Shown piece after piece: positions 12,517 to 44,452 of a stretch of DNA of 64,000 nt; positions within the stretch are counted from its first letter, which is position 1; the number at the start of each line of letters is the position of its first letter. A program made the position numbers and the translations under genes. This DNA is from Candidatus Nanoarchaeia archaeon (GTDB taxonomy: Archaea > Nanobdellota > Nanobdellia > Pacearchaeales > GW2011-AR1), in assembly GCA_035291345.1 (NCBI GenBank), contig DATDSF010000038.1, positions 23,845-87,844 on the forward strand. Reading direction: 5' to 3'. Under the pieces are notes generated by a model. It saw only the letters and a list, made by a program, of their open reading frames with translations. It was not told the DNA's origin and did not search any database.

Positions 12517-13422
12517 CTATTTTTTATTTAATTTACTGAAAGGTGAGGAAATGCCTAGTAATTTCAACTTAGATTCAAACTCATCTAATTCTCTTGAAAC
12601 CTTAATATAAGAATTATCAACATACGACAACCAACCAAATTCTGTGGCCAATTCAAAAATATCTTTTGGAGTATATTTCTCAGCAATGATCATTTGTATT
12701 AAGTTATAGTCTTTCTGGAAAAGTTTTAAAGAATATAACTCATACTCTTCAAATGCAGACCATGATATTGGGAACTCTTCTTTAACAAATTCTGCAATAG
12801 CCAAAGCATACTGATGGATCTCATATTGTGCATGCGAGTCCAATCGAAGTCTTAAAAAGTTAAATAAGTTATGCAAATCAATCTTCCAATAAGCTTCTGT
12901 ATAAGTTGATAATGGAAGATCTTTTCTTGCTTGTTCTTTTGCAACTCCAGCTTCAATTCGTTCATTATATATTCTTGTAGCGATAGCTTGAAAATTTTTC
13001 TCATCTTTTGAAAGATTATGGGCTAATATAGGGTTTATATCTTCAAGTTTTCCAGCAGAACCTTGTTTATTGTCTTGAGCTTGTACTCTCCACTGATTTT
13101 GTGCAGTTTCTTGTTTCTCATCAATTGCTAATGAATATCTGGTTGAATATTCATTTACATTTGCAGTTCTATGTCTAATCCATTGACGCCAACAATCCAT
13201 AGGAACTTTAACATGAAATTTCATTTCAACCATTTCAAATGGTGATGTGTGCCCATGTCTATAAAGATATTTTATTAAACCTTTGTCTTCAGAGACTTTT
13301 TTAGTACCAGCACCATATGAAACTCTTGCTGCTTGAACAATTGAGTCATCAGAGCCCATTACATCAACAAGGCGTACAAATCCCTTATCTAAAACATTAA
13401 TTTTTCTACTCCACTGTTCCAT
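12517..13422 (-). CDS. thyX: FAD-dependent thymidylate synthase ThyX
   Basis: ThyX signature RHRTANVNEYSTRYS (RHR-x7-S). Length about 300 aa, as expected for ThyX. Confidence 0.8.
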   Translation of the reverse strand: MEQWSRKINVLDKGFVRLVDVMGSDDSIVQAARVSYGAGTKKVSEDKGLIKYLYRHGHTSPFEMVEMKFHVKVPMDCWRQWIRHRTANVNEYSTRYSLAIDEKQETAQNQWRVQAQDNKQGSAGKLEDINPILAHNLSKDEKNFQAIATRIYNERIEAGVAKEQARKDLPLSTYTEAYWKIDLHNLFNFLRLRLDSHAQYEIHQYALAIAEFVKEEFPISWSAFEEYELYSLKLFQKDYNLIQMIIAEKYTPKDIFELATEFGWLSYVDNSYIKVSRELDEFESKLKLLGISSPFSKLNKK

Positions 13423-13703
13423 TATTTTTTTCCTTTAAATATTAATATGGTATTATCGATGATTAACAATAAACCCCAGAGGATAAACATAGAACCAAAA
13501 GAATAAGCAATAATATCAGTAGGCCATTCACTGACAGGTTTTAAACTAAATAAGTTTATTACTATCTGTAAGCCAATTGAAAAAATAAATACACCAAGAG
13601 AAATGAGAAATATACCTGACATAATTGATGATTTCACTATTACCTCTTTTAATAATAAAAAATAATGGCCGGTATTGCTACCAGCCATAAATGAATAATG
13701 CAA
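13422..13703 (-). CDS. small integral membrane protein (93 aa)
   Basis: Two or three hydrophobic helices. Confidence 0.4.
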   Translation of the reverse strand: MHYSFMAGSNTGHYFLLLKEVIVKSSIMSGIFLISLGVFIFSIGLQIVINLFSLKPVSEWPTDIIAYSFGSMFILWGLLLIIDNTILIFKGKK

Positions 13704-13808
13704 AAAGAATCACGTGTTTGTCTTGGAGTCCGTTATGTAAGCGGTTTTAAAGACGTTTAGAGTGACACTACGTGTTCATCACTTTTGACCAATTCGAATT
13801 GGTCAAAC

Positions 13809-14576
13809 TTAAAATATATTACGATCTATCATATATGATCTATAAGCATGTAAACTATTAATAAGAACAATAAGTTTACCGGGTTCAATTGGCACTCCAT
13901 CAACTAGTTGATCATTAATTCTTTTAGTTACCCAATCATTTAATTTTCCAGCAAGGTACATGTCATTGATAAAATGCGTGTAAAAATCACAACTCCTCAT
14001 GTGATAAAACATAATCAATTTATTATCACGAATCAACCAAGAATAATCTAAAGAACAAGAAACCCGTCCAGTTTGTTCATTCATGTCTTGGTCAAGATCA
14101 CTTGAATAGATATTTAATACTTGACGTCTTGAATTCCTATCTAATACAAGTTGATTAATAATACGAAGCAGAAGATTATTACGGAAGAAGCGCTCATTGT
14201 AAGTATATTCAAAACGACCATTAACCATAATTGGTTCCCAAACATACCGACGTAATTTCCAAGCTTCACCAGGATTGGGACTAATAGCTGATTCATCTAC
14301 TCTTTCAAGAAACTCAACATTGGCCCATGCAAGAACGTTATCTGGTTGTTCTATTGAATCTTTATAGATAAAAGCATAAGCCTTTTTAACTTCAGCTAAT
14401 GGGTCTAGTATTGAGAATGTTTCTCCTTGAATTTCTTTAGTAGTATACTTCTCAACAAGTTCAGGTGTGTCAAGTTTTTTGTTCTGAAATGACTTAAGTC
14501 TAACCTCTTGACCCATTTCGAATAAGTTTCTTTGTGTTTCTTTCACTGTCTCGTAAAGATTTTTGTAAATCCTCAT
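13809..14576 (-). CDS. thymidylate synthase ThyA-fold protein (TS or deoxypyrimidylate hydroxymethylase family)
   Basis: RRQVLNIYSSDLD aligns to ThyA RRIIVSAWNPxDL. GRVSCSLDY...FYHMRSCDFYTHFINDMYLA aligns to ThyA PCHAFFQFY...[21 protein letters not shown]. LHAY near the C-terminus aligns to ThyA DAHIY. Strong AAAGGAG ribosome-binding site. Confidence 0.65.
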   Translation of the reverse strand: MRIYKNLYETVKETQRNLFEMGQEVRLKSFQNKKLDTPELVEKYTTKEIQGETFSILDPLAEVKKAYAFIYKDSIEQPDNVLAWANVEFLERVDESAISPNPGEAWKLRRYVWEPIMVNGRFEYTYNERFFRNNLLLRIINQLVLDRNSRRQVLNIYSSDLDQDMNEQTGRVSCSLDYSWLIRDNKLIMFYHMRSCDFYTHFINDMYLAGKLNDWVTKRINDQLVDGVPIEPGKLIVLINSLHAYRSYMIDRNIF

Positions 14577-20930: not shown

Positions 20931-21032
20931 ATCAATTATTTATTTTTATTCAACAAATATAATTCATCATTAATACAGAAATGCCAGAAAATAAATTCTG
21001 GCATTTCTAGACTAAGAATATTTAGAAGAATA

Positions 21033-21290
21033 TTAAGCTTGAGGTGCAGATGCAATTGTTTCGCGTTTCTCTCTTAAAGCAGCTCTAAGTTCCTTCATGA
21101 ATTTGGTCATTGCAGAACTGCCAGTATTTACTCTTTTGCCTGGAGCTTTCATACCCTTATCAAAAAAGCGAATAATATCTGTTTTCAACTGTTCAGTAAT
21201 TTCATCTAATTTACCACAAAGCAATTCACCTTGTGTTGGATCTACTACTGCAGTTTCTGTTGCAACGGATTCTGTTTTTACTTCTGCCAT
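21033..21290 (-). CDS. abundant small protein candidate (85 aa)
   Basis: Shares an identical 26-bp ribosome-binding site and leader (ACTAAAAGGAGCCAAACAAATGGC) with 16385..16831. Promoter motif upstream. Confidence 0.5.
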   Translation of the reverse strand: MAEVKTESVATETAVVDPTQGELLCGKLDEITEQLKTDIIRFFDKGMKAPGKRVNTGSSAMTKFMKELRAALREKRETIASAPQA

Positions 21291-21312
21291 TTGTTTGGCT
21301 CCTTTTAGTGGT
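21286..21312 (-). repeat. conserved translation-initiation region, copy B
   Basis: Identical 24-26-nt segment in front of 21033..21290. Confidence 0.7.
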
Positions 21313-21328
21313 TGAAATTAATTTATTA

Positions 21329-21350
21329 TTTGAGACAACAAATATATTAC
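21329..21350 (-). promoter_or_regulatory. conserved promoter-like motif
   Basis: GTAATATATTTGTTGTCTCAA upstream of 21033..21290. Confidence 0.45.
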
Positions 21351-21838
21351 ATCTTTTATTTTTTGATGTGAAAAATTTTTAGAACCATACTTTATTGATA
21401 AAATATAAAATGTATCTTATTAGTGAAATAATTGATAATCAAAATATTCTAATAAATAAACTTCTTTCCAATGCGCTCGCCCGTAGTTGCTTTTATATTT
21501 TATATCAGAATGTTAATAATATAAATGTTAAGATCTTGTTTACCATAATTTAATTCAAATTTAATTTAAAAACACCCGTTGAACCGTTGACTTCATTAGT
21601 GAATATGTCATATAACAAGTCAAAAGTAACTTGTGTGTTTTGACTTTTTCTGGCGGTTCAAAAATCAATCTGTAAAAAGTTTAAAACTCTCAATTTGAAG
21701 AACACCGAGTTCGAAAATCCTAATATATTATATATAAATAAGGTTAATAATTTAAAACTAAAATAAGTTAAATAGCTTTTTAGTTAAATATATTGGAATT
21801 TTCCGCAACTCTGAGTATACTTTATTTTATTGAGATTA

Positions 21839-22063
21839 TTAGCCACCAATCTTAAGTAGCTTTCCATCAGATTCAAGATAATTTTCATAGTAGATATCAA
21901 TTATTTCACTGGGAGAATCCTTTACATATATCATCAATCCTACAACTCCGGAGTTTTTATTGATATAACCTCTACCCTCTAATTGGAGTTCGCCTAAAGC
22001 AATTTTTTCTATAAGTTGCTCAACAGGGGTATTGGACGTTATTTTAATCTCTTTCTCATCCAT
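21839..22063 (-). CDS. hypothetical protein (74 aa)
   Basis: ORF. Last minus-strand gene before the strand switch. Confidence 0.35.
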   Translation of the reverse strand: MDEKEIKITSNTPVEQLIEKIALGELQLEGRGYINKNSGVVGLMIYVKDSPSEIIDIYYENYLESDGKLLKIGG

Positions 22064-22299
22064 TAATTAACCTTATCTCTTTTATAGTTTTCAATCATAT
22101 TTGATAGTGTTTCTATACAATCTGTAAAATTATCTTCATTCTCCTGAGATTTTAACCATAAGTTAAATTCTGGATCATTTAGTAGTGAAACTAATTCTTC
22201 AAACAATATCTTATATTCTTCTGGATTCAATTAATTTCGCACCAATGGAGTAACTGATTGTTTAATTTTGTCACATCAATTTTGGAGTAAATTTTCAAT

Positions 22300-29311: not shown

Positions 29312-29533
29312 ATGTTAAGAACTGTCAAAAGATTTATGTATGGTGGAAGTTCAGGAATTTGTGGAAAGGTATCTAATGAAGAATTTTGCAGTAGTATGAA
29401 AACAGATTATATGTATGAATTAAGTTGTGGACATACATATGTAGAATCATTTAAAGGTAAAGAAGGAAAAATTCTTGATAATGATTCATTAGTCTTATGT
29501 GAAAAATGTGATAAATTACCAAACCAGGAGTAG
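29312..29533 (+). CDS. small Cys/His zinc-finger protein (73 aa)
   Basis: CGK...C...CGH...C..C spacing. Confidence 0.4.
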   Translation: MLRTVKRFMYGGSSGICGKVSNEEFCSSMKTDYMYELSCGHTYVESFKGKEGKILDNDSLVLCEKCDKLPNQE

Positions 29534-29537
29534 TAAA

Positions 29538-30188
29538 ATGAACGTATATGATTTTCCAGATCAATTTAATGAAGAACACTTATCAAAGATATATGAACTT
29601 ATTTTTGATAGACAAGAGCAATTAGCTCAAAAATATACACCTCTTGAACACCAGAATGGCTTAAGATGGACTCAAGATATGCCAGTCAATATTCATGATG
29701 GAAAAGGCCAAGCACAATTGAAAGATATGGCTTGGAGAACAATGGAGGAGATTGGAGAATCACTTGAAGCATGGTTTGATGATAGTGAGAATGTTGAAAC
29801 TCAAAATGAGCAACTTTTACATGCAAAAGAAGAACTTGCAGATGGCTTACATTTCTTAACAGAATTGGGTATACTTTCAGGTATAAAACATACTGATATT
29901 AATATTTCACTTGAAAAAGTAGTACATCAAGCTAAAGAGGTTGTAAGTATTGATGAAGCTGTTACTGATTTTGTTTTGAGACTTGGTATTACAATGAATT
30001 GTTTGAAGAATAAACCTTGGAAATGCTCTCAATATCCAACAGATGAAGCAAAATTCAAGAAACACTATTTATTAGCATATGAGGCTTATATTGTTCTTAT
30101 GCTTGAAATAATGGAACCACTTGAAATTCTTAATCTTTACTTTAGAAAATCAAACGTAAACCAGTTTAGAATTGAATCTAAATATTAG
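29538..30188 (+). CDS. MazG-like all-alpha NTP pyrophosphohydrolase (candidate dCTPase/dUTPase)
   Basis: EEIGESLEAW and EELADGLHFL match the MazG EExxE / EELxD metal-binding helices. Start at the ATG with an AGGAG ribosome-binding site. Confidence 0.6.
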   Translation: MNVYDFPDQFNEEHLSKIYELIFDRQEQLAQKYTPLEHQNGLRWTQDMPVNIHDGKGQAQLKDMAWRTMEEIGESLEAWFDDSENVETQNEQLLHAKEELADGLHFLTELGILSGIKHTDINISLEKVVHQAKEVVSIDEAVTDFVLRLGITMNCLKNKPWKCSQYPTDEAKFKKHYLLAYEAYIVLMLEIMEPLEILNLYFRKSNVNQFRIESKY

Positions 30189-30197
30189 GAGGTTGTT

Positions 30198-30443
30198 TTG
30201 GAAAGAGATGCTATACTTTTGAAATTTAAGAGTATCTTAGAGAATAAGTTGGGTGTTCATTTTTCTGAAATTACAGAAAGCTCACACTTAATAAATGATT
30301 TAGGTGCTGATTCACTAGATGTTATAGAAATTCTAATGGAGTGTGAATCACTTTTTGATATTTCTATACCAGAGGGGGATGTTGAAAATCTTTTCACTGT
30401 AAAAGAATTAGTTGATTATGGTTATGGGAGGTTAAGTGGCTGA
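30198..30443 (+). CDS. acyl carrier protein
   Basis: Canonical phosphopantetheine-attachment motif DLGADSLDVIEILMECE in a 4-helix, roughly 80-aa protein. TTG start 5 nt after AGGAGG. Confidence 0.7.
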   Translation: MERDAILLKFKSILENKLGVHFSEITESSHLINDLGADSLDVIEILMECESLFDISIPEGDVENLFTVKELVDYGYGRLSG

Positions 30444-31350: not shown

Positions 31351-32244
31351 ATGACATCAGATAATTTTCAAGAAATTTATATAAAGATTCTTCAAAAAAC
31401 TTTAGACGAAGGTATTTTGTGGGCAAAAGCTAAGACAATTACTCCAATTAGTTTTACAATTACAAATCCTGTTTTATCATTAATTAACCATAAGAAAAAC
31501 TGGTCATGGGCTTTTGTTGAACTAGCAAACAGGTTGGCTTTTGAGGAAAAGGAAATGCAAAATCCTGGATCAGCATGGACTTTTAGACCTGCTTGGAAAA
31601 GAAAACTTGAAAAAGAAAATGGAGAATTTCATTATAGTTATGGTGAGGAATATACAATACAAATTCCACACATCTTAAAAAAATTAAAACTTTCAGCAGA
31701 TCGAGAAGCTATTTTAACAATGTGGAAACCTGAGTATCTTTACATAAAAGAAATGGATAGAAGGCCTTGTACATTAAATATTCACTTCTTCAAAATTCAG
31801 AATAAGTTACATTGTTCTGTATATATGCGTACTGTTGATATAATGAATCTATTACCATATGATGTTTTTCATCACACAATGCTACAAAGATATTTAGCCT
31901 CTGTATTAGGAATTGAATTAGGAAATTTTAACTTTAATGCTTCATTTGGGTACTATCAAAAGAAAAGAGATGTTACAGGTAGTGTGCAAAATACTCTAAA
32001 TGCATTATCAAAAACCTCTTCCCTTGATTATTGTGATGATTGGAGATTTGGTGAGAAAGAAAGATTAGAAATAACTAATATAGCTTTTAGACTTGATAGA
32101 GGTGAAGGCTTTTTTTACTATCATAATCATGAACTCAGTTCCTTTGGTCAACAATATGCAAATGCTCTCATATATATTTATCAGAAAAATGCTTTATTAA
32201 AAGGGTCTGAAATTATAAATGAATTTAAAATTCTTTTACTCTAA
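31351..32244 (+). CDS. thymidylate-synthase-fold deoxycytidylate hydroxymethylase-like enzyme
   Basis: Its N-terminus (YIKILQKTLDEG) aligns to the ThyA N-terminus MKQYLELMQKVLDEG. REAILTMWKPEYL aligns to ThyA RRIIVSAWNP. RRPCTLNIHFF aligns to ThyA PCHAFFQFY, the catalytic Cys. KLHCSVYMRTVDIMNLLPYDVFHHT aligns to [24 protein letters not shown]. The uracil-specifying Asn of ThyA (LPFN) is replaced by Asp (LPYD), as in T4 dCMP hydroxymethylase. Confidence 0.65.
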   Translation: MTSDNFQEIYIKILQKTLDEGILWAKAKTITPISFTITNPVLSLINHKKNWSWAFVELANRLAFEEKEMQNPGSAWTFRPAWKRKLEKENGEFHYSYGEEYTIQIPHILKKLKLSADREAILTMWKPEYLYIKEMDRRPCTLNIHFFKIQNKLHCSVYMRTVDIMNLLPYDVFHHTMLQRYLASVLGIELGNFNFNASFGYYQKKRDVTGSVQNTLNALSKTSSLDYCDDWRFGEKERLEITNIAFRLDRGEGFFYYHNHELSSFGQQYANALIYIYQKNALLKGSEIINEFKILLL

Positions 32245-32289: not shown

Positions 32290-32796
32290 ATGATTTATAT
32301 CTTTGAAGGCTCAGATTTATCAGGAAAAACAACGTTAGCTGAAGCCTTTTCAAAAAAGAATAACATTCCACTCATTAAAAAACGTTTTGATGTATTGGGG
32401 ATGTCAAAAGAATTCTTACTTACAAATTTAATTGAAGAATTACAAAAATTCTTTTGGCTTACTATATGGCCAATAAGAGAACTTATTAATGTGGCAGTTG
32501 ATAGGTCATTACTTTCATCACTTGTTTATGGTACTTTCTTTGAAAGAGAATATGATAAAACATATATAATGGAAGCTTTAAAAGATCCATTTGTAAAAGT
32601 TTTCTTTGTATATGCTGATTCAAACTCTATTGAGAGAAGAAAACTTGTCAGAACAGAAAAACTTTTCAGTTTAGATGAAATATTAAAAATTCAAACCATG
32701 TATTTTGAAGTAGTTAAAGTACTTGAAAATGAGGGTATTAAGATTATTTCAATAAATAATTCAGATAATTCAAATATAGAAATACCGAGTATATAA
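32290..32796 (+). CDS. thymidylate-kinase-like P-loop dNMP kinase
   Basis: IFEGSDLSGKTT matches the Tmk P-loop (IxxEGxDGxGKxT). The DRS...YG motif matches the Tmk DRY motif. Confidence 0.6.
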   Translation: MIYIFEGSDLSGKTTLAEAFSKKNNIPLIKKRFDVLGMSKEFLLTNLIEELQKFFWLTIWPIRELINVAVDRSLLSSLVYGTFFEREYDKTYIMEALKDPFVKVFFVYADSNSIERRKLVRTEKLFSLDEILKIQTMYFEVVKVLENEGIKIISINNSDNSNIEIPSI

Positions 32797-33440
32797 TGCA
32801 AACTTTTTTATTGTCTGATAAAGAATTTGCTGAAACTATCTATTTCAAAGACTTATGTAAAGGCTTAGAATTTCTTGATAATAAGCGTTTAAATAAACAA
32901 ATTCTTGAAGCATACCAAATCTTACAAATTTTAATAAAAGGAACTGGTAGATATTTGAGTCATCCTGTGGTTCAAATGTGGATGAGCTCAGAGAATCTTT
33001 TAGCAAGATATGGTTTTGAATGTTGTAAAGCTTTTCAATCAAAAAGTGCTATAAAGACTATACATAAGTATATGAGCTTCTTTGAAGAATATTGTTATAC
33101 AGCACGACATGCTTATTTTAAAGAACCCTTTTGGTTAGAAAATCAGAATTTTTTACATGAATTAGTAAAGTCTCATAAATCTAATCTTCAATATAAAGAC
33201 TCAAGTTATTATCAATTTAATGATATTGACTCAAATCTTTTATATGTTTGGCCTTCATATTATGTATTTGATAAAAATAATGGATTTAGAATCTCTTATG
33301 AAGGTAAAGAAGCTTTACTAAAAACATGTAAAAGGAAAGCAATCAAAGAAGATATTTATCAATCTGAAATATTAAACTCATTCATGTATTATGATGGAAA
33401 TAAATGGGTAAGAGCACTTCATTTAATGGAGAAACAATGA
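32796..33440 (+). CDS. hypothetical protein (214 aa)
   Basis: ORF inside the modification cluster. Confidence 0.4.
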   Translation: MQTFLLSDKEFAETIYFKDLCKGLEFLDNKRLNKQILEAYQILQILIKGTGRYLSHPVVQMWMSSENLLARYGFECCKAFQSKSAIKTIHKYMSFFEEYCYTARHAYFKEPFWLENQNFLHELVKSHKSNLQYKDSSYYQFNDIDSNLLYVWPSYYVFDKNNGFRISYEGKEALLKTCKRKAIKEDIYQSEILNSFMYYDGNKWVRALHLMEKQ

Positions 33441-34426
33441 AATTTTCTGTTGGTGGTTTTCAATGCGGCATAGGTAATTTATTAGGCTTCCAATTAGAAG
33501 GTTATAATGTGCTTTTTAATGTGGATAATAGAGAGTTTATACATAAAGGTAAGGTAGCTTTTTATGATAATTTCCCTAATATAAGTATTAGTAATGATTT
33601 TGATGATGGATTAGTAAATTATCCTACTCCAACAGTTTTAATATCATCTCCATCCTGTAGTCAAATTTCTGCATTAGGAGTGAAAAGAAAGGATCGTTCA
33701 AGTTTAAAGACTCTTGGCATTAAAGATTTTGAATTTTATCATGCTCTAGTAAAATTACTTTATACAAATGCTCCATATATTGTTATGGAATATTTACCTT
33801 CTCTCCTTAGGTTTTTTGAAGTAAGGCATAATGAACTTTATTGTATATCAACAAAAGAATCATTCTCATATCCAGATCATTATCGTGTTCAAATTGTTAA
33901 TGTTGATTCACAAATATATGGAACGCCACAGTCTAGAAAACGTTTATTTATTTTCTTTTCGCTAAAGAATTTAGATTTTATGTATCTTAAACCTTCTACA
34001 ATGCTCGCTGGTAAAAAAGCTGGAGAAGTTTTAATTGTATTAGATCTTTTAAGAAAAGATAGAAAATTATATGATGATGAACATCCTAATCATTCTGAAG
34101 AAAGAAAACAAGGTTTTAATAAGCTCTTACCAGGTGATAGTTTTTATGGAACTCAAAATAATAAAAGATTAGATCCTGAAAAGATTTGCCCAGTTATTGC
34201 ATCATCAAAAACTCAATATGTACATCCTTGGCATGATAGAGTACTTACACCAAGAGAAGCGGCTACATTTCAAGGATTCCCATTAGATTTTCAATTTGGG
34301 CATATAAGTTTTTCAACAAAGCTGGATTTAATTGGTAGAAGTATACCAGTACAAGTTGCTGCTCATATAGCAAGTGAGATTAAATACAATTATGAAAGAA
34401 ATATTGATTTAGGAGTTATAGGATGA
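33437..34426 (+). CDS. DNA (cytosine-5)-methyltransferase family protein
   Basis: Motif I FSVGGFQCGIGNLLGF. Motif IV SSPSCSQIS (PC motif). Motif VI MEYLPS. Motif VIII GTPQSRKRLFIF. Motif IX TPREAATFQGFPLDFQF. Start at the ATG at 33437 with a GGAG ribosome-binding site. Confidence 0.65.
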   Translation: MKFSVGGFQCGIGNLLGFQLEGYNVLFNVDNREFIHKGKVAFYDNFPNISISNDFDDGLVNYPTPTVLISSPSCSQISALGVKRKDRSSLKTLGIKDFEFYHALVKLLYTNAPYIVMEYLPSLLRFFEVRHNELYCISTKESFSYPDHYRVQIVNVDSQIYGTPQSRKRLFIFFSLKNLDFMYLKPSTMLAGKKAGEVLIVLDLLRKDRKLYDDEHPNHSEERKQGFNKLLPGDSFYGTQNNKRLDPEKICPVIASSKTQYVHPWHDRVLTPREAATFQGFPLDFQFGHISFSTKLDLIGRSIPVQVAAHIASEIKYNYERNIDLGVIG

Positions 34427-34737
34427 GTAATTTTCAATCGATACTAATAACAATTAATGGTTCTAGAATTAAAGAGATGGCTTCTAGAAAAATGGTATTA
34501 TTACAAACTGTTGCAGCTAAATTAGCTGAACAAATGGAAGATTTAAGAAGAGGCCATCTTAATGCAGACGATCGTCAACTTATTAAAGAAAAGAAAGATT
34601 TTGAGTTATTGAAAATAGATGACTCTGTTAACTTCTGTCAAGTTTTAATAGATTTTATTCCAAATGAAAAGGAATATGAATTAAGTGCGAGAGAATTAAA
34701 TTTCTTACGTAATGATAAGATAATTTCTTATGAATGA
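34423..34737 (+). CDS. hypothetical protein (104 aa)
   Basis: ORF between the methyltransferase genes. Confidence 0.35.
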   Translation: MSNFQSILITINGSRIKEMASRKMVLLQTVAAKLAEQMEDLRRGHLNADDRQLIKEKKDFELLKIDDSVNFCQVLIDFIPNEKEYELSARELNFLRNDKIISYE

Positions 34738-35494
34738 AATCCTAGTAAATCAAGTTTATCAATGTGATAATCTATACTTACTCAAAGAATTACCAAGTAA
34801 GTGTATAGATTTGATATATGGGGATGTGTTATTTGGTACTGGAAAAGATTTTAAGGAGTTTAAAGATTTAAAACCTGTGAGATTAGACATATTGGAATTC
34901 TATACTCCAAGATTAATAGAAATGCATAGGGTTCTTAAACCAACTGGTTTATTATACTTTCATTGTGATTCAATCATTTCCCATTGGATAAGAATACTTA
35001 TTGATGGTATTTTTGGTGATCATAATTTCAGAAATGAAATAATATGGTACTATAATTCTGCACCTCGTAAGAAAAAAGATTTTGGAAAAAGACATGATAC
35101 TATATTAAGATATACAAAAACTGAGAACTATTATTTCAACCCAGATTCTAAATATGTAAGACAACCATATTCAGAAACTGCACCAAGAGGTTATGATAAA
35201 GAAAAATATTATGATCAAAGAGGTAAAATATTAGACGATGTATGGACCATTTCAATTCTAGGTCAAAATGATAAAACAGAGAGAACTGGTTACCCTACTC
35301 AAAAGCCAAAATCTTTATTATATCCAATTATAGACTCAAGTTGTCCAAGTGATGGAGTATTCTTTGATCCTTTTGTTGGTTCAGGAACTTCTGTTGTTGT
35401 TGCAAAAGAATTAAATATAGATTTCATTGGGTGTGACATAAATCATAATGCTATTTCTTATACTATAGAGAGGTTAAAGAATGTTAATTGCTGA
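34730..35494 (+). CDS. beta-class amino (N4-C / N6-A) DNA methyltransferase
   Basis: C-terminal SAM motif FDPFVGSGTSVVVA (FxGxG). An N-terminal segment DLIYGDVLF sits where DLIxxDPPY would be, so the DPPY motif is degenerate. Confidence 0.55.
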   Translation: MNEILVNQVYQCDNLYLLKELPSKCIDLIYGDVLFGTGKDFKEFKDLKPVRLDILEFYTPRLIEMHRVLKPTGLLYFHCDSIISHWIRILIDGIFGDHNFRNEIIWYYNSAPRKKKDFGKRHDTILRYTKTENYYFNPDSKYVRQPYSETAPRGYDKEKYYDQRGKILDDVWTISILGQNDKTERTGYPTQKPKSLLYPIIDSSCPSDGVFFDPFVGSGTSVVVAKELNIDFIGCDINHNAISYTIERLKNVNC

Positions 35495-35783
35495 CATAAT
35501 TAAATTAGCGGAATCAGATTTTTCAGAGTGTTTGGAAACATTAAGAAAAAAGGGGAATGACTATGCTGCAGAGATTGATGGTCTTTCTAATTTTAAATAT
35601 TCCGGTGATTTTGCTGGAGTTACACAAGAGCAATCTTGTAAAGTACTAATTGGTACTAAGCTTGCAAGATTAAGAGAATTAACTAATAATCCAAACAAAG
35701 TTGTTGCAAATGAATCAGTAAATGATACTATCAAAGATTTAATAAATTATTTAATCTTATGGAAAAGTATTAGAAATGAGTAA
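35481..35783 (+). CDS. hypothetical protein (100 aa)
   Basis: ORF. Confidence 0.35.
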   Translation: MLIADIIKLAESDFSECLETLRKKGNDYAAEIDGLSNFKYSGDFAGVTQEQSCKVLIGTKLARLRELTNNPNKVVANESVNDTIKDLINYLILWKSIRNE

Positions 35784-36798
35784 AATTCTAAGCACTAAAG
35801 ATGAATTAATACCACATCCAATATCGAAAGTTTCTTTTGGTAGTATCTATTGTGGAGCAGGTTTTCCTATTTTAGGAGCACTTTGGGCAGGTATGAATGC
35901 TAGATGGGGTCTAGAACCACGACCTTATTTTAATATAAAAACTTTCCGTAGCAATTTTCAATCTATTATGTATTCAAGTGAACTGGAAGCTTTTCATCAA
36001 TACCCAGTTGATGTTATTTGGGGAAGTCCAAGTTGTGGAGAGATATCATCAAGTTCTAGAAATTCCAAGAATGCAAAAACTATGGCTATGAAAGAATTTC
36101 AAGATTTTGAATATGTAAGATTTATATTAGAAATTATTGCTAGAAAACCAAAAGTATTCATTCTTGAAAATATACCTTCTGTGAAAAACTTTGTTCAATT
36201 TAATTCTACTCCTGCTGGATTTATATTAAAGCATCAAATCTCAAAAGAAGAAGTTCCTCTGTATGATTATTATATTGAAGAGCATAGGATTACCCCAACT
36301 GAAGTTGGTATACCTCAAGTGAGAGATAGGCTATTTACAATTGGTAGTAGATTTCCTTTTAGGTTTATGTTAGAACCACCAGAAAAAGATTATAGAGCTG
36401 AACTATCTATTGGGCCTATCTTTGAAGAACTTGATGACCTTAGAAGACAAGGTGTTACTTTACATAATGATCATTTTCCAAAACATTCAGAAGAAAAAAT
36501 TGAAAAAATGTCTCGTATTCGTCCTGGAGAAGGTCTCTACGGAGGAATCAACAACAAAAGACTGGACTCAACAAAATGTGGTCCAGTTATCATGTCTTCA
36601 GCAACTAGGTACATACATCCTTGGGAACATAGACTCCTTACAGGAAGAGAATCAGCATGCCTTATGGGACTACCTTTAGACTTCTTGTTTATTGGAAGCG
36701 AAAATAAAGTATTAGATCAGATAGGGAAAGGTATTGTACCACAAGTTGGTGAATATATTCTAAAACAAGTAAAAAAGTATTTGGAAAAAGAGTCATGA
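35776..36798 (+). CDS. DNA (cytosine-5)-methyltransferase family protein
   Basis: Motif I SFGSIYCGAGFPILG. Motif IV GSPSCGEIS. Motif VI FILENIPSV (ENV). Motif VIII IPQVRDRLFTIG (QxRxR). Motif IX TGRESACLMGLPLDFLF. Motif X IGKGIVPQV. Confidence 0.7.
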   Translation: MSKILSTKDELIPHPISKVSFGSIYCGAGFPILGALWAGMNARWGLEPRPYFNIKTFRSNFQSIMYSSELEAFHQYPVDVIWGSPSCGEISSSSRNSKNAKTMAMKEFQDFEYVRFILEIIARKPKVFILENIPSVKNFVQFNSTPAGFILKHQISKEEVPLYDYYIEEHRITPTEVGIPQVRDRLFTIGSRFPFRFMLEPPEKDYRAELSIGPIFEELDDLRRQGVTLHNDHFPKHSEEKIEKMSRIRPGEGLYGGINNKRLDSTKCGPVIMSSATRYIHPWEHRLLTGRESACLMGLPLDFLFIGSENKVLDQIGKGIVPQVGEYILKQVKKYLEKES

Positions 36799-37102: not shown

Positions 37103-38971
37103 ATGAATAAAATAAGTACTGAACAATTCAAGAAAGCTACTTCAGAGATAATGAAAGGTATAAATACCCCTCATAATAGAGAGATTGTTAAAGAATATTA
37201 TAGAGGTAATGAGAATGTATGGCTTGATTCAGCAAATAATCCTTTAATAAGACCTAGACTTGATTTTGTAAAAAATGCAGTATCAACTCTTAGTGCTGTA
37301 AAAGGTAAAGATATCAAAATTCTTGATATTGGAGCTTGGTCTGGTTTGTTTTCAAATGAGCTTAAAATGTTGGGTTATAATAAAGTTCAATGTCTTGAAT
37401 TAAATGTAAAGGCATGTCACTTAGGAGAATTTAGATATGCTTTACCCTACATCAATGCAGATGTTGAAACATATAAAACATTTGAAAAGTTTGATGTTAT
37501 CATAATGGGAGAGATTATTGAACATTTAATCAATCCAGCTGAGACAATTAATAAAGTTAAATCTTGGTTATCTGATAATGGACTTTTATTAATAACTATA
37601 CCAAGAGAAGAACATATGTGGCCAGGAGTTACTGGAAATCCAGCAGATGAAGGATCTGAGCATATTAACCAGATATCAATTGAGGATCTTGAAAAACTAG
37701 GTATGGTTATTACAGATACTATAACCGCTGCTAACAATGAAATGTCATGGCATGTTGGGTATATAGTGAATTCAGTTATTGAAACAAAATTGAAAGAACC
37801 AGAAAAACCAACGTTTCACCTATTAGGCTTAGCAGATTATAAACTTGGATGGGAAGAAGCACCTAATAATCCATTCAATACTAAAATTATTTATATGTGC
37901 AGGATGCTTAAAGAATTAGACTATAAAGTAATTGTTTATGGTGTTGAAGGAAGCAAAATTGATGAGAAGATTGATGAATTTGTTTCTGTTGTTTCTGAGA
38001 GCATGCATAATAAAATACATGGCAAAAGAGATAAAAATGCTCTTGACCATCTAACTAATCAAGAAGGTCTTGATTTTGAAGCTTTTATTAAGAATACAAT
38101 TGAAAGTCTTGAGTCAAGAGTTAAAAAGCATGATTTTATTCTAAATTTCTTTGGGGATGCTTTTAGACCTATCACAGATGTCTATGCATCTCATTGTATT
38201 TGTATTGAACCTGGAATAGGACATGGTGGATCATATTTACCGGATAGAATTTTTGAATCATACACATGGGCAACAGCTTGTTACTATAGGTGGAATAAAA
38301 ACTCTCCCTCATATTTTCCAAACAACTATGATTATGTTATCCCAGCATATTTTAATGTAGATGATTACCCATTTGAAGCAGAGAAAGATGATTATTATGT
38401 ATTCTTGGGAAGGAAAACTTGGGGTAAAGGCTTATCAGTTGCTATTGATGTCACTCACCAATTAGGCAAAAAACTTGTAGTTATAGGCGGTGGTAGTATA
38501 TTTGATCCTGACATTCAAGCGGGTTCAGTATATAAAGTATTTGATCATGTAGTTGAAGTAGGAGTATTACCACTTAAGCAAAAAGTTAAATACTTATCAA
38601 AAGCTAAAGCTCTAATCTATTTTAGTCTATATGTTGAGCCATTTGGTCATGCTCCAATTGAAGCCATGTTATGTGGTACTCCAATTATTACCAGTGACTA
38701 TGGAGCTTTTGTTGAAACAAACCTCCATGGAATAACTGGTTATAGATGTAAAACTATGAATGATATTTACTGGGCTTGTAAATCATCTGAGAAGCTTAAT
38801 CCAGAAAAGATAAGAAAATATGCTGTTGAAAATTATGGGTTAGAGAACATAAAAGAAATGTTTAAAAGATATTTTAAAGATACTCATGATTTAAGAACAG
38901 GAAAAGCAGACTGGTATACAATTGACAAACAAAATCCTGCAAACCTTGAATATCTAAGGAAAAAAATATGA
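37103..38971 (+). CDS. bifunctional class-I SAM-dependent methyltransferase / GT-B (GT4-like) glycosyltransferase
   Basis: N-terminal SAM motif I ILDIGAWSGLFS and an acidic-residue motif (IIMGEII). C-terminal GT4 EX7E motif EPFGHAPIEAMLCGTPII, with GGGS upstream. Confidence 0.6.
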   Translation: MNKISTEQFKKATSEIMKGINTPHNREIVKEYYRGNENVWLDSANNPLIRPRLDFVKNAVSTLSAVKGKDIKILDIGAWSGLFSNELKMLGYNKVQCLELNVKACHLGEFRYALPYINADVETYKTFEKFDVIIMGEIIEHLINPAETINKVKSWLSDNGLLLITIPREEHMWPGVTGNPADEGSEHINQISIEDLEKLGMVITDTITAANNEMSWHVGYIVNSVIETKLKEPEKPTFHLLGLADYKLGWEEAPNNPFNTKIIYMCRMLKELDYKVIVYGVEGSKIDEKIDEFVSVVSESMHNKIHGKRDKNALDHLTNQEGLDFEAFIKNTIESLESRVKKHDFILNFFGDAFRPITDVYASHCICIEPGIGHGGSYLPDRIFESYTWATACYYRWNKNSPSYFPNNYDYVIPAYFNVDDYPFEAEKDDYYVFLGRKTWGKGLSVAIDVTHQLGKKLVVIGGGSIFDPDIQAGSVYKVFDHVVEVGVLPLKQKVKYLSKAKALIYFSLYVEPFGHAPIEAMLCGTPIITSDYGAFVETNLHGITGYRCKTMNDIYWACKSSEKLNPEKIRKYAVENYGLENIKEMFKRYFKDTHDLRTGKADWYTIDKQNPANLEYLRKKI

Positions 38972-41091
38972 AAAATAAGATTGCAATTTTAGTAATTAAT
39001 TATGAAACCCCAGAATTAACAAAAAACTTAATGAATCAAATTAAGACATTTGATGAATCAAAGTTTGATTTAACTATTTGGGATAATAGTTCTTCAAATA
39101 AGATGACAGAAGCTACTGAACTTAGCACCCGTAATCTTGGATTCGATCAAACTGTATTAAAATGGTTAAGCTGTAAAGAAGATTATGCTGGATATTGGCT
39201 TTTAAATAGTGATTGTGTTTTGGATTTACAATATAATTACTTAGATAAATTCTTAAATTTGATTAATCATGCTGATAATATTGGTATAGTCACAACAAAG
39301 GTTAATGACACTCTTAATGGATTTATATCTCCCCAGAGAATTACACAAAAGGGTATATTTCTCACTAGATATTCTGATTTGCAATCTGCAGTTTTGTCAA
39401 ATTCATTTGTAAAAGCTTTCTTAAAAGGTTTAAAAGGGAAAAAATTAAATTACTTTCATGGCGGATTAGATTTAGATTTTGCATTATTTGCTGAACGAGA
39501 AAATTTCTTAATATTAGTAGATTCTACTATGGAAATCAATCATTTGGTTGGAAAATCAACGGATAAAGCGATACCCATTAATGATTTTACCAATTTCTTG
39601 ATTGAAAGGTTTGGTAATTTATCAATACTTGACAAATATACCAATTCTACTGATACTATTAGATTTAATGAAGGTAATGCAGAACTATTAAGTGCTACTT
39701 TGATTGAAAGATATTCAATGCCTGTACCAGAAAATAAAACACCTTTAAAAGCAGTCATTGAATTAAAATCAAAAAAACTACAAGGACAAATGGTAGATTG
39801 GGGAATTATTAATTTTAATAACGGAATTAAGCTTTTTAATGAAATTAAATATGCAGAAGCTATTCCATATCTTAAAATAGCTGCTTATGCAGGAATACAT
39901 CAAGCATATGCATATTTAAGTAGTTGTTATGATCAGACTGGTCGATTCTCAGAAGGATCTGAGTTTTTTAAACCATTAGTTAATCTAGAAGTTTATGATG
40001 ATGTTAGGTCAAGGTATGAATATTTAACTGCTCAAAGAGACACTTATGAAGTTGTAAAAAGAAAACAACAGTTAATAGTTTTCTATGTAAAACCTGATGC
40101 TGGGCATACTTGGGACGCAGATAACACTGAGAAAGGAATTGGCGGATCTGAAATTGCAGTAATACAACTTTCAAAAGAACTTGCTAAATTAGGTCACTTA
40201 GTTTATGTTTTTAATAATTGTGGTAATCCAAAAATCATTGATGGTGTAGCTTGGGAACCTATAGAGAAATTTGATGCTTTTGAAAAGATAAATGAAATAC
40301 ATACTTTAATAGTGTCAAGATTACCAGAATTTAGATTTGTGAATCCAAAGACTAAAGTTTATTTTTGGGCTCATGATTTAAACTATTATAACAGGATTAA
40401 TCCTATTAATATAAACTATTTTGATAAATTTTTAGTGTTATCAAGATATCATTATAGATTCTTTACGGCTGCATATCCATTTATACCTACTAGTAAAATG
40501 GAGATTTTTGCTAATGGTTTAGATTTATCAAGATTTAACCAAAAAGTAGAAAGAATACCTACAAAATTAATATATTCAAGTAATCCAGATAGAGGCATGA
40601 CTGAGTTGATACCCATTTTTGAAGAACTAAAAAAATGGGATAATAGATTAGAATTACATGTTTTTGGATACTATCCAGATAATATTAGAAAACATCCAAA
40701 TTATTGGAAAGAAACACCTGGATTAATTTATAGAGGATATCATAATCAGAAAGATCTTGCAAAAGAATATATGTCTAGTAAATTATGGTTATATCCTTGC
40801 ACATGGTTAGAAACATTTTGTATTACAGCCATTGAAGCTCAAGCAGCAGGAACTCCAGCAGTTGCTTCAGATTGGGGTTGTTTGAGAGAAAGAGTTGGAA
40901 ATGCCGGTATTATTGTTGATGGTTGGATAAAAAATAAAGACCATAGAGAAAATTTTATAAATGCTGTTAAACATTTATTAACCAATGATATTGACTGGTA
41001 TGATTATCATCAAAAAGGATTAGAACAGTCTAAGAACTTATCTTGGATTAATGTTGCAAAAAGATTCTTAGAATTGGGAGATAAATTATGA
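38968..41091 (+). CDS. multidomain glycosyltransferase (GT2-like N-terminus, TPR linker, GT4-like C-terminus)
   Basis: N-terminus KIAILVINYETPE...IWDNSS resembles the GT2 DxD/DDGS region. The middle region is TPR-like (AIPYLKIAAYAGIHQAYAYLSSCY). C-terminus has GIGGSE and EX7E (ETFCITAIEAQAAGTPAV). Confidence 0.55.
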   Translation: MKNKIAILVINYETPELTKNLMNQIKTFDESKFDLTIWDNSSSNKMTEATELSTRNLGFDQTVLKWLSCKEDYAGYWLLNSDCVLDLQYNYLDKFLNLINHADNIGIVTTKVNDTLNGFISPQRITQKGIFLTRYSDLQSAVLSNSFVKAFLKGLKGKKLNYFHGGLDLDFALFAERENFLILVDSTMEINHLVGKSTDKAIPINDFTNFLIERFGNLSILDKYTNSTDTIRFNEGNAELLSATLIERYSMPVPENKTPLKAVIELKSKKLQGQMVDWGIINFNNGIKLFNEIKYAEAIPYLKIAAYAGIHQAYAYLSSCYDQTGRFSEGSEFFKPLVNLEVYDDVRSRYEYLTAQRDTYEVVKRKQQLIVFYVKPDAGHTWDADNTEKGIGGSEIAVIQLSKELAKLGHLVYVFNNCGNPKIIDGVAWEPIEKFDAFEKINEIHTLIVSRLPEFRFVNPKTKVYFWAHDLNYYNRINPININYFDKFLVLSRYHYRFFTAAYPFIPTSKMEIFANGLDLSRFNQKVERIPTKLIYSSNPDRGMTELIPIFEELKKWDNRLELHVFGYYPDNIRKHPNYWKETPGLIYRGYHNQKDLAKEYMSSKLWLYPCTWLETFCITAIEAQAAGTPAVASDWGCLRERVGNAGIIVDGWIKNKDHRENFINAVKHLLTNDIDWYDYHQKGLEQSKNLSWINVAKRFLELGDKL

Positions 41092-41515: not shown

Positions 41516-42907
41516 TTGAACACGAAAGAATTAAAAGATAAAGTAAAGATTGAAGATATCATATCTCAATATATAAAGATTGAGCGTGACTCAAACTATT
41601 CTGACATGAGGGCACAATGCCCATTCCATGAGGGAGATCAAAATCCCTCTTTTAGTGTAAATGGTGTTAAACAACTTTTTTATTGCTTTGGGTGTAAAAA
41701 AGGTGGCGATGTATTTAAGTTTGTAGAATACATTGATAAAATTAATTTTCAAGAAAGTATAAAAAGAGTAGCAAAACTTGCAGGTATTGAAGTTGAACTT
41801 GGAGATCTAGATTTACTTAATCAAATCACTGAATATTACCACGAGCAGATCAATCTACCAAGAGGTATTAAGTTTTTAGATGATAGAGAAATTCCCGATG
41901 AGATGGCTATTGAATTTAAACTCGGCTATGCAAATGAAAATCTTTATGCTCTTTATAATGCTTTTCCAGATTTTAAACAACAGTTGATAGATTTAAACTT
42001 CATTGATTCAAAATATGCAGGAACAGTAAACGAGATAAATCCTTCTAGATTTTCAAACAGGATTATGATTCCTATTACGTCGAACATTGGTACCATTGGA
42101 TTTTCTGGCAGAACTTTAATTGACAGTGAAGATAAATATAAAAATATTAAAAATAATCGTTTCTTCAATAGGAGAGAAATGGTATTTGGTTTACCTCAAG
42201 CAAGAAAATCTATTATTGAGATGGGAAACTGCTATTTAGTAGAGGGCTTTCTTGGGAAAATAAGAATGCATCAAAGACATTATTTTAATACGGTTTCTAT
42301 CTTTGGTTCTGCATTAACTATTGAACAAGCAAGACTTATAAGGAGATATACTAATAAAGTAACATTTTTATTTGATGGAGATGAGGGAGGTTTTACAGCT
42401 TGTATGTTTTCTGCTAAGTCATGTATTATGGCAGGTTTAGATTTTGATATATTAATACTTCCAGATGGATTAGATCCTGATGATTATCTAAAAAAGTCAA
42501 AAAATAAAATAGAAACATTAGATAGTATTGATAAAGTAATCTTCTTGAAAGAAGTATTTATTAAATCAGATATACTAGATTGTGTTGAGAAAGCAGATAA
42601 TATTGAAAAAATTCCAGTTGATATTATTGATGGCTTTAAGATTAATTTGGATATGGTAAGGAAAAACAGGACTACGTCAATTGTCAAAAACTACAATATG
42701 AAAAATCTGACAAAATTCTCCCACATGTTAATGCTTATTGAATCACACCCAAAACTTGAAGTTTTATTAACTGATGAAGAAAGAGTAGAAATTGATAAAG
42801 AAAAAAATAATATGGATTTATTAGAAAATATAATAGATGGTAATAATTTTTATACTAAAGTCAAAGATCCAGAAAAACTATTTAACACAATGAGGAACTC
42901 AAAATGA
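41516..42907 (+). CDS. DnaG-type DNA primase (zinc-binding + TOPRIM)
   Basis: CHC2 zinc finger CPFHEGDQNPSFSVN...CFGCKKGG. TOPRIM glutamate in CYLVEGFLGK and DxD in LFDGDEGG. Start is uncertain; TTG at 41516 is the first in-frame candidate. Confidence 0.7.
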   Translation: MNTKELKDKVKIEDIISQYIKIERDSNYSDMRAQCPFHEGDQNPSFSVNGVKQLFYCFGCKKGGDVFKFVEYIDKINFQESIKRVAKLAGIEVELGDLDLLNQITEYYHEQINLPRGIKFLDDREIPDEMAIEFKLGYANENLYALYNAFPDFKQQLIDLNFIDSKYAGTVNEINPSRFSNRIMIPITSNIGTIGFSGRTLIDSEDKYKNIKNNRFFNRREMVFGLPQARKSIIEMGNCYLVEGFLGKIRMHQRHYFNTVSIFGSALTIEQARLIRRYTNKVTFLFDGDEGGFTACMFSAKSCIMAGLDFDILILPDGLDPDDYLKKSKNKIETLDSIDKVIFLKEVFIKSDILDCVEKADNIEKIPVDIIDGFKINLDMVRKNRTTSIVKNYNMKNLTKFSHMLMLIESHPKLEVLLTDEERVEIDKEKNNMDLLENIIDGNNFYTKVKDPEKLFNTMRNSK

Positions 42908-43362
42908 GTAGAATCACAAGACAGGATTATTTTATGGCTATTGCACAATTAACAGCATTAAGAGGAACTTGTAATAGATTACAAGTTGGTTGTGTTTTAG
43001 TAAATGATAATAGAATTGCTTCTGTGGGATATAATTCATCAGTAAAAGGCACAGCTCATTGTATAGATGTAGGCTGTTTAATGGTTGATGGGCATTGTAA
43101 AAGATGTCCTCATGCTGAAGTAGCAGCAGTTGCTAACCTAACAAGAAGATATCCTCAACTAAAAGCATATATAACACATCAACCTTGTTTAGATTGTCTA
43201 AAATTACTTGTAACTGCAAATGTAACAGAAATATATTATATTAAGGAATATCAATCTGCTGAAAGAAACAGAGTACTTGATGAAATCTCTCAAGCTCATC
43301 CTAATTTTATTATGCAACAAATTATCCCAATAACTAATCTTTTATTAGGTAGTTCTAGGTGA
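42904..43362 (+). CDS. dCMP deaminase
   Basis: Zinc motifs CPHAEVAAV (HAE) and PCLDCLKLL (PCxxC). Confidence 0.75.
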   Translation: MSRITRQDYFMAIAQLTALRGTCNRLQVGCVLVNDNRIASVGYNSSVKGTAHCIDVGCLMVDGHCKRCPHAEVAAVANLTRRYPQLKAYITHQPCLDCLKLLVTANVTEIYYIKEYQSAERNRVLDEISQAHPNFIMQQIIPITNLLLGSSR

Positions 43363-44424: not shown

Positions 44425-44452
44425 AAAATAATTGTTCTATTCAAGGATTAAT

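Follow-up and report, generated by a model that had tools for sequence, protein, structure and literature searches.

Paired Cytosine-type Thymidylate Synthase Paralogs Predicted beside ThyX in an AT-rich Bacteriophage

Three Thymidylate Synthase-related Genes in One Phage

The stretch of DNA under study, a 64-kb window of contig DATDSF010000038.1 (positions 23,845 to 87,844; assembly GCA_035291345.1, labeled Candidatus Nanoarchaeia archaeon), contains three genes related to thymidylate synthase (TS): the flavin-dependent enzyme ThyX and two proteins with the fold of ThyA, termed copy A and copy B. All three open reading frames (ORFs) were confirmed at the coordinates given for them in an original prediction, with ThyX located on the minus strand next to copy A in the leftward arm of the window, and a search of the window ORFs revealed no fourth TS-like ORF. 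Proteins encoded in the window recur on contigs of 121–123 kb that were assembled repeatedly from many samples, and ThyX, copy A, and copy B are real, intact genes of an AT-rich bacteriophage of ∼121–123 kb.

The assignment of ThyX, which catalyzes conversion of deoxyuridine monophosphate (dUMP) to deoxythymidine monophosphate (dTMP), is unambiguous at the level of sequence. Its translation scored 178.4 bits against Pfam Thy1 (cut-off 24.8; 1.8e-52) and 184.9 bits against TIGR02170 (cut-off 87.9; 1.3e-54) and contains RHRTANVNEYS, which corresponds to the RHR-x7-S signature motif. These matches bear out the earlier proposal that ThyX covers dTMP synthesis.

A thymidylate synthase fold with a catalytic Cys is established for both A and B, and the profile and sequence matches of both lie far beyond chance. 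Copy B scored 46 bits against Pfam TS and matched Bacillus subtilis ThyA in phmmer with an E value of 1.7e-10, and its AlphaFold2 (AF2) model has a predicted local distance difference test (pLDDT) score of 92.4. Both copies retain the nucleophilic Cys (Cys174 in A and Cys140 in B), the folate-activating Glu, the residues at ThyA positions Arg166 and Ser/Thr167 (Arg194-Ser195 and Arg160-Thr161), Asp169, and the catalytic Tyr (Tyr126 and Tyr97). Direct comparison of A with B by BLASTP gave 28% identity with an E value of 4e-8.

Active-site Residues of Copies A and B

HMMER alignment of the L-L-P-Y-D segment of copy B with G-x-P-F-N of ThyA places Asp171 at the position of Asn177, as originally claimed. 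Copy A had been described as ambiguous at this position, but its H-F-I-N-D segment aligns without gaps with G-F-R-N-D of T4 gp42, so that Asp205 corresponds to Asp179 of the T4 enzyme and an Asn lies one residue earlier. The alignment that had been suggested as a check for Asn at this position in both proteins revealed Asp in both instead. This Asp is invariant in the 52 aligned homologs of A and the 24 of B, in 120/120 retrieved A homologs, and in 285/285 classifiable relatives. Experiments have established the Asn-to-Asp switch as the determinant of the choice between uracil and cytosine (PMC8670742, PMC6400193, PMC13326640): Asn177Asp turns the Escherichia coli and Lactobacillus casei TS enzymes to deoxycytidine monophosphate (dCMP), and D179N has the reverse effect in T4 dCMP hydroxymethylase (dCH) (PMC8670742, PMC6400193). 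Copies A and B are thus cytosine-type, and neither would be a true ThyA or a dUMP hydroxymethylase, the two roles that had been offered for A and that Asp205 excludes. As judged by sequence, it is very probable that both copies act on a cytosine nucleotide.

The same residue bears on the possibility that one copy is a working TS despite its Asp, providing a redundant supply of dTMP. The A-like gene is the sole annotated TS in phage Muddy and in Clostridium perfringens phages, where it sits with genes for dUTPase, dTMP kinase or thymidine kinase, and deaminase, as such a role would lead one to expect. Nevertheless, the mutational interconversions described above and the invariance of the Asp speak strongly against it, both copies score far below the cut-offs of the NCBIfam TS equivalogs (A, 44.4 bits versus 174.6 for TIGR03283; B, 40.7 bits versus 108.4 for TIGR03284), and ThyX already adjoins A. 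Redundancy is therefore highly improbable.

The hydroxymethylases T4 gp42 and MilA share a signature in which Asp or Glu precedes the catalytic Cys by three residues (Cys-3) and Ser or Thr precedes the catalytic Tyr by two (PMC6400193), and T4 dCH is inactivated by D145N (PMC6400193). In A and B, the water-activating acid at Cys-3 is replaced by an invariant Arg (Arg171 in A and Arg137 in B) and the Ser/Thr partner by Tyr (Tyr124 in A and Tyr95 in B). The designation of B as a dCMP hydroxymethylase, consistent with Asp171 and a MilA-like fold, goes beyond the evidence in this respect, and the label is not justified because the residue signature is missing. The flavin-dependent 5-hydroxy-dCMP synthases are diagnosed by Asn at position 169 (D169N; PMC13326640), whereas Asp is retained there in A (Asp197; 117/120 homologs) and in B (Asp163; 23/23 classifiable homologs).

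Neither copy has the C-terminal segment with which ThyA closes its active site for hydride transfer and which is retained in PaMx74 gp52, a 5-methyl-dCMP synthase of the Xp12 type. Copy A ends 10 residues past S-L-H-A-Y, with a C-terminal Phe that is invariant among close homologs. The hydrophobic Leu143/Trp83 shield of ThyA is also absent, with Arg at position 143 in both copies and, at position 83, Ile or Phe in A and an invariant Lys (Lys85) in B. Superposition of B on MilA covers the five-helix C-terminal domain that is the hallmark of MilA and BcmA, and Thr occupies the position of the ribose-preferring Ala176 of MilA. Copy B lacks an equivalent of His207, where it reads G-Y-Y-Q-K-K-R-D (copy A has His243-x-Tyr245), and retains one Arg of the Arg126/127 pair (“DRE”); copy A of the window has both (“SRRQ”). 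A Foldseek search of BFVD with B revealed no close viral structure (best TM score of 0.71) and no characterized one.

A total of 289 Asp177 homologs, collected with both queries and by searching 1.84 billion representatives exhaustively with a profile, were classified by these residues, and 285 were classifiable. Arg was present at Cys-3 in 179 of the 285, and this class combines Tyr-x-Tyr (175/179) with an upstream NPG motif (178/179). The class with Asp at Cys-3 instead has [GSTN]-x-Y-G (81/84), and NPG is missing in 80/84. A hidden Markov model (HMM) of the A family gave 93 bits with B, compared with 60 for PaMx74 gp52, 56 for T4 gp42, and 54 for E. coli ThyA. Given this preference for B, the two copies are mutually closest and, by the measure of their sequences, ancient paralogs within one discrete subclass of the thymidylate synthase superfamily, here called the Arg/Tyr-x-Tyr/NPG subclass, which is apparently uncharacterized. 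True B proteins are rare, the whole library yielding about two dozen clusters at 50% identity.

Inteins were found in relatives of both copies. An A-like gene (L018:12043-13989; IMGVR_UViG_3300033141_003544) carries one directly before the catalytic Cys (…KKRIP|C…VHN|CSTGYMF), and a 640-aa B-like protein, P0145, carries one inside the Tyr-x-Tyr motif (…HFCY|C…SHN|SYGE). Insertion of inteins is typical of indispensable active-site motifs. That catalytic motifs are the sites interrupted argues that A and B are working enzymes.

Relatives and Gene Neighborhood

An A-like gene was present in all 13 loci that carry a true B gene, comprising 11/11 IMG/VR contigs, a contig of a “Candidatus Pacearchaeota” metagenome-assembled genome (MAG), and the window. 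In most of these contigs, the A-like gene is followed directly by a C5 DNA methyltransferase gene, which it sometimes overlaps, and then by primase, and in every related locus a C5 methyltransferase gene comes after the A-like gene or the B-kinase genes. The cassette is kept in relatives at 39–50% identity, and in two of them, L011 and L015, the kinase gene likewise comes after B. In L011, the closest IMG/VR relative, a DUF3326 protein (L011:13599-14618; 6.6e-76) lies between the C5 methyltransferases, the slot held by an N4/N6 methyltransferase in the window.

In a 117-kb relative (45–46% identity), ThyX overlaps B and is followed by the kinase and two C5 methyltransferases, with A located 20 kb away. 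The ThyX of this relative (L005:8965-10014) is not orthologous to that of the window, since BLAST detected no similarity between them, which implies that ThyX was gained independently or replaced in the two phages. The DnaB of the same relative (L004/L005:1735-3465) has 576 aa, compared with 449 aa in the window, and gives a faint intein-splicing match; this lineage may carry another intein.

A-like genes alone are far more common. A locus search of IMG/VR seeded with 17 close homologs of A yielded 558 confirmed hits; among the best 80, a homolog of the window pyrophosphatase lies directly upstream of the A-like gene in 78, and the order pyrophosphatase, A, DNA polymerase A (PolA) is found in 70. 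The same neighborhood of A is present in C. perfringens phages and in Muddy-like actinophages, and in C. perfringens phage E1 the upstream gene matches phrog_12184. Muddy gp47, which lies beside the A-like gp46, was considered as a degenerate B and rejected (BLASTP E value of 0.05; missed by both family HMMs; unknown family in PHROGs), and no similarity to B was shown by the hypothetical gene that lies upstream of TS in the C. perfringens phage.

Given that genomes with B all keep A, whereas A mostly occurs alone, the two copies are not redundant. Copy B would add a second activity, with a different product, substrate form, or partner, to a system based on A, and the finding is of more interest than simple redundancy. 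An alternative to two independent enzymes is an A:B heterodimer, or a role for B as a regulatory or substrate-delivering subunit of A. Enzymes with the TS fold are obligate dimers in which Arg126′/Arg127′ of the sites come from the partner subunit (PMC5175136), B has a single Arg where A has both, and B was never found without A. Each copy nonetheless has a full catalytic set, with inteins at the catalytic motifs of both in relatives, and the two genes are separated by 17 kb, on opposite strands, in the window and by 6–9 kb in most relatives, so such an arrangement is improbable.

The features of the window that bear on nucleotide metabolism and DNA modification are collected in Table 1. Copy B is preceded by an all-alpha nucleoside triphosphate (NTP) pyrophosphatase gene, an ORF resembling acyl carrier protein, and small ORFs and is followed by genes for a deoxynucleoside monophosphate (dNMP) kinase-like protein, a Pyr_excise-like protein, a C5 methyltransferase, an N4/N6 methyltransferase, a second C5 methyltransferase, a methyltransferase-glycosyltransferase family 1 (GT1) fusion, a GT4 protein, primase, dCMP deaminase, and PolA.

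Table 1. Coordinates of the thymidylate synthase-related genes and of associated features in the window
Feature	Position	Strand	Basis or remark
ThyX, flavin-dependent thymidylate synthase (dUMP to dTMP)	12517..13422	minus	301 aa; Thy1 and TIGR02170
Copy A, short-form ThyA-fold enzyme, predicted cytosine-type, Arg/Tyr-x-Tyr/NPG subclass	13809..14576	minus	255 aa
All-alpha NTP pyrophosphohydrolase (dUTPase_2/MazG-like)	29499..30188	plus	Pfam dUTPase_2 1.1e-06; phrog_12184 5.5e-26
Copy B, long-form ThyA-fold enzyme, predicted cytosine-type, same subclass	31351..32244	plus	297 aa
P-loop dNMP kinase-like protein	32290..32796	plus	Thymidylate_kin, TIGR00041, phrog_761, weak
C5 cytosine DNA methyltransferase 1	33404..34426	plus	Pfam DNA_methylase 1.2e-22
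N4-C/N6-A DNA methyltransferase	34730..35494	plus	Pfam N6_N4_Mtase 3.5e-44
C5 cytosine DNA methyltransferase 2	35776..36798	plus	Pfam DNA_methylase 1.1e-22
Methyltransferase-GT1 fusion glycosyltransferase	37103..38971	plus	Pfam Methyltransf_23 and Glycos_transf_1; N-terminal class I methyltransferase domain
GT4/GT1 glycosyltransferase	38968..41091	plus	Pfam Glycos_transf_1 and Glyco_trans_1_4
dCMP deaminase	42904..43362	plus	phrog_174 2e-32; homolog kept in related loci
Family A DNA polymerase, would incorporate the nucleotide	44432..47449	plus	Pfam DNA_pol_A 9.6e-61

The pyrophosphatase, for which a PDB sequence search returned no match, is a candidate dCTPase/dUTPase that would supply the monophosphate substrate. 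The ORF between this gene and B encodes an acyl-carrier-protein-like product (30198-30443; phrog_5934, 3.4e-15). The dNMP kinase-like protein matched Thymidylate_kin at 26.9 bits (4.6e-06), slightly below the cut-off of 27, and its only PDB match and nearest solved structure is SPbeta YorR; it is a candidate kinase for modified dCMP. Directly after it lies a gene for a 214-aa protein (32796-33440; NCBIfam “MSMEG_6728 family,” 6.7e-21) with a Pyr_excise N terminus similar to T4 endonuclease V, a possible DNA glycosylase with a part in base modification or repair; no annotated counterpart is present at that position in the 117-kb relative. The three DNA methyltransferase genes inside the cassette are spaced by ORFs of ∼100 aa.

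The glycosyltransferase genes enter a rival model, built on the original prediction, in which B is a T4-type dCMP hydroxymethylase whose product, 5-hydroxymethylcytosine (5hmC), is glycosylated by the adjacent enzymes, and A is a true ThyA or a dUMP hydroxymethylase. Two such genes do lie 5 kb downstream of a pyrophosphatase-B-kinase cassette, and Asp177, the MilA-like fold, and the polar Lys85 and Arg137 of B at the Trp83 and Leu143 positions favor the model. However, the specificity Asp is also present in A, so that the second half is wrong, and B lacks the Asp/Glu and Ser/Thr signature. No homologs of the window glycosyltransferases were found within 10 kb of B in other B-bearing contigs, the 117-kb relative has a glycosyltransferase of another family (GT2) elsewhere in its genome, and glycosyltransferase-methyltransferase fusions are typical of cell-envelope glycan genes too. 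The scheme as a whole is accordingly unlikely. The slot between the second C5 methyltransferase and primase is variable among relatives, and its glycosyltransferases, though possibly tied to base modification, may be variable cargo. The ∼380 N-terminal residues of the protein encoded at 38968-41091 match no family. A route through methyltransferase, TET, and glycosyltransferase was also considered and is unsupported, with no TET/JBP-type dioxygenase among the window ORFs scanned with Pfam or PHROGs, a scan that some minus-strand ORFs fell outside.

The window has a G+C content of 27–33% (about 29% overall) and contains about 100 tightly packed ORFs, whose transcription diverges at about 22.2 kb, the point at which GC skew flips sign. 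The region at about 21000-22300, in which this switch coincides with the change of skew sign and the cumulative-skew minimum, could serve as a replication origin or as an early promoter region. The rightward arm encodes DnaB, a sigma-70-like factor, an SF2 helicase, a 5′-3′ exonuclease, DnaG primase, dCMP deaminase, PolA, RecA, and SbcCD and is a phage module for replication and nucleotide metabolism. The sigma-70 region-2-like protein (24933-25604) lies between DnaB and the SF2 helicase and holds the same place in distant relatives (L014:10967-11590). At the far end, a minus-strand ORF of >1200 aa (60392-64000) runs past the end of the window. No match was returned when 21.5 kb of the window was compared by megablast with 50,697 phage records, so that no close cultured relative is evident at the DNA level.

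NCBI records label the phage protein P0121 “Candidatus Nanoarchaeia archaeon” and the related contig L104 (NZDU01000008.1), which has the genes from DnaB to primase, “Candidatus Pacearchaeota archaeon ARS103.” Given that the replication genes are of bacterial type and that a sigma factor is present, these contigs are suggested to be phage contigs mis-binned into AT-rich DPANN MAGs.

Candidate Pathway and Comparison with Characterized Enzymes

The explanation that accounts best for these observations, and that we hold with a little more than even confidence, is that A and B are cytosine-type paralogs that modify dCMP beside ThyX, and the phage probably puts a modified cytosine into its DNA. In this scheme, ThyX, fed by dCMP deaminase, would make dTMP, and by analogy with T4 and Xp12 the all-alpha NTP pyrophosphatase would convert dCTP to dCMP. 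Since each copy keeps the catalytic set and has Asp at the Asn177 position, each is expected to attack a cytosine nucleotide at C6, dCMP being the most likely one, and to pass the methylene-tetrahydrofolate carbon on to C5. A, B, or both would in this way form a C5-substituted dCMP. The dNMP kinase would phosphorylate this product and the phage PolA would incorporate it, again by analogy with T4 and Xp12.

The fate of the transferred carbon is less readily predicted. In enzymes that form a methyl product, position 143 is occupied by a non-acidic residue (PMC13326640; 10.1101/2024.12.05.627091), and A and B, with Asp and Arg, show the combination of Asp177 and non-acidic 143 that is used as the criterion for Xp12-type synthases. 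This two-residue reading, which is our own application of the rule and not a published prediction for A or B, would point to 5-methyl-dCMP. A, B, or both would then be reductive dCMP methyltransferases that place 5-methylcytosine (5mC) in phage DNA, with the deaminase turning part of the 5-methyl-dC pool into thymidine nucleotides and the C5 DNA methyltransferases patching escaped cytosines. The loss of hydroxymethylation in T4 dCH D145N fits such a role, as do the C5 methyltransferase genes directly after, and sometimes overlapping, A-like genes and the match between LLPYD of B and GLPYD of PaMx74. Furthermore, 5/7 tested metagenomic Asp177 enzymes gave 5-methyl-dCMP (10.1101/2024.12.05.627091), and their neighborhoods (TS, deaminase, MazG-like pyrophosphatase, and PolA) resemble Muddy gp44-46 and the window; those enzymes are not placed relative to the present subclass, and the one tied to the best-studied deaminase is described as Xp12/PaMx74-like. 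The ThyA closure, kept in both PaMx74 gp52 and E. coli ThyA, is missing in A and B, their nearest structural and sequence neighbors are non-reductive, and this phage relies on ThyX, for which dihydrofolate reductase (DHFR) is not required. A jackhmmer search of the window and 94 related loci, seeded with PaMx74 frd and E. coli FolA, gave no DHFR homolog, a weak negative because the two seeds miss each other. Taken together, this Xp12-like strategy is a possibility to be entertained but not the favored reading.

Several of the same features, namely the missing closure, the non-reductive nearest neighbors, and the lack of a detected DHFR in a phage that uses ThyX, together with the Asp class as outgroup and the polar residues at positions 83 and 143 of B, speak for a non-reductive outcome of the hydroxymethyl type. 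The chances of such an outcome, at least in the MilA-like copy B, are roughly even, and a 5-methyl-dCMP product of one or both copies is only slightly less likely. It is improbable that the subclass performs an undescribed terminal step, for example capture of dCMP's exocyclic-methylene intermediate by a nucleophile that is neither water nor hydride, or the use of another cofactor or substrate form; the A and B pair would then provide the phage lineage with two distinct C5-modified cytosines or with one new base made by both enzymes.

A number of observations weigh against modification of dCMP by the pair as set out above. The essential acid of the hydroxymethylases is absent from A and B, and the placement of the Arg-Tyr pair at the positions of the Asp-Ser dyad of the T4 structure (PMC6400193) is inferred from sequence. 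The substrate form of B is uncertain, given that it lacks a His207 equivalent and one Arg of Arg126/127, and the pyrophosphatase could equally be a dUTPase. Two C5 methyltransferases and one N4/N6 methyltransferase, conserved in the cassette, would be nearly idle if every cytosine were C5-substituted, which argues against complete cytosine replacement. The glycosyltransferases are not conserved partners of B. The co-occurrence of A and B is partly phylogenetic, since the B-bearing contigs share the layout of their replication module and all belong to a single deep phage lineage. Finally, a literature search found no description of the subclass or of the A and B pair and no activity data for any member.

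Almost every known pre-replicative modification of pyrimidines, 5hmC, 5mC, 5-hydroxycytosine (5hoC), and 5-hydroxymethyluracil (5hmU) among them, begins with a phage ThyA homolog. That phage ThyA paralogs modify dCMP is a well known theme; what is new here is a widespread subclass and a co-inherited pair of paralogs within it. At present, product predictions for such homologs rest on rules for two or three active-site residues, which fit the A/B class imperfectly because it combines Asp177 with Arg in place of the acid of the hydroxymethylases and lacks the ThyA closure of the methylases. The class spans hundreds of viral contigs, including the therapeutic phage Muddy, C. perfringens phages, and gut phages. 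Knowledge of its product would broaden the code by which phage DNA modification is predicted, with relevance to sequencing, cloning, restriction evasion, and enzyme tools, and strict co-inheritance of A and B offers a direct handle on whether one phage makes two cytosine derivatives.

Among characterized enzymes, the CMP 5-hydroxymethylases MilA and BcmA (PDB 5jnh and 5b6d) share the five-helix C-terminal domain with B (PMC5175136). MilA has Asp at Cys-3 and His216/Tyr218, whereas B has Arg at Cys-3 and Gly in place of the His. The ribose preference of MilA is attributed to Ala176 and Lys133, and B has the deoxyribose-type Thr at the first of these positions. In addition, B has the NPG and Tyr-x-Tyr motifs and is only 18% identical to MilA. 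T4 gp42, a dCMP hydroxymethylase (PDB 1b5e and 6a9b), resembles A in the equivalent of Asp179, in a local R-S-x-D...N-D motif, and in a short C terminus, and its gene context is also alike, with a pyrophosphatase, a dNMP kinase, a dCMP deaminase, and a separate dTMP synthase. The best PDB match of A is a flavin-dependent 5-hydroxy-dCMP monooxygenase (PDB 9iqc). The 5-hydroxy-dCMP synthases RB69 gp48, DLP3 gp80, and HY126 combine Asn169 with Glu at Cys-3, in contrast to the Asp169 and Arg of A and B.

Synthases of the Xp12/PaMx74 type share with A and B Asp177, a position 143 that is non-acidic and close to an Arg (QRNVPC), and a neighboring pyrophosphatase and deaminase. PaMx74 gp52 has Asn at position 143 and Arg at position 142. 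It is 30% identical to E. coli ThyA and has the whole C-terminal segment, His207/Tyr209, and an adjoining DHFR gene, ThyA-like features that A and B lack save for the His and Tyr kept in A. E. coli ThyA itself shares the fold, the catalytic Cys, Glu58, Arg166, Asp169, and equivalents of Tyr94 and Trp80 with both copies and differs in that Asn177 is replaced by Asp, Leu143 by Arg, Trp83 by Ile or Phe (A) or Lys (B), and His147 by Ser or Thr. The terminal chemical step predicted from these residues for A and B differs from that of all characterized relatives.

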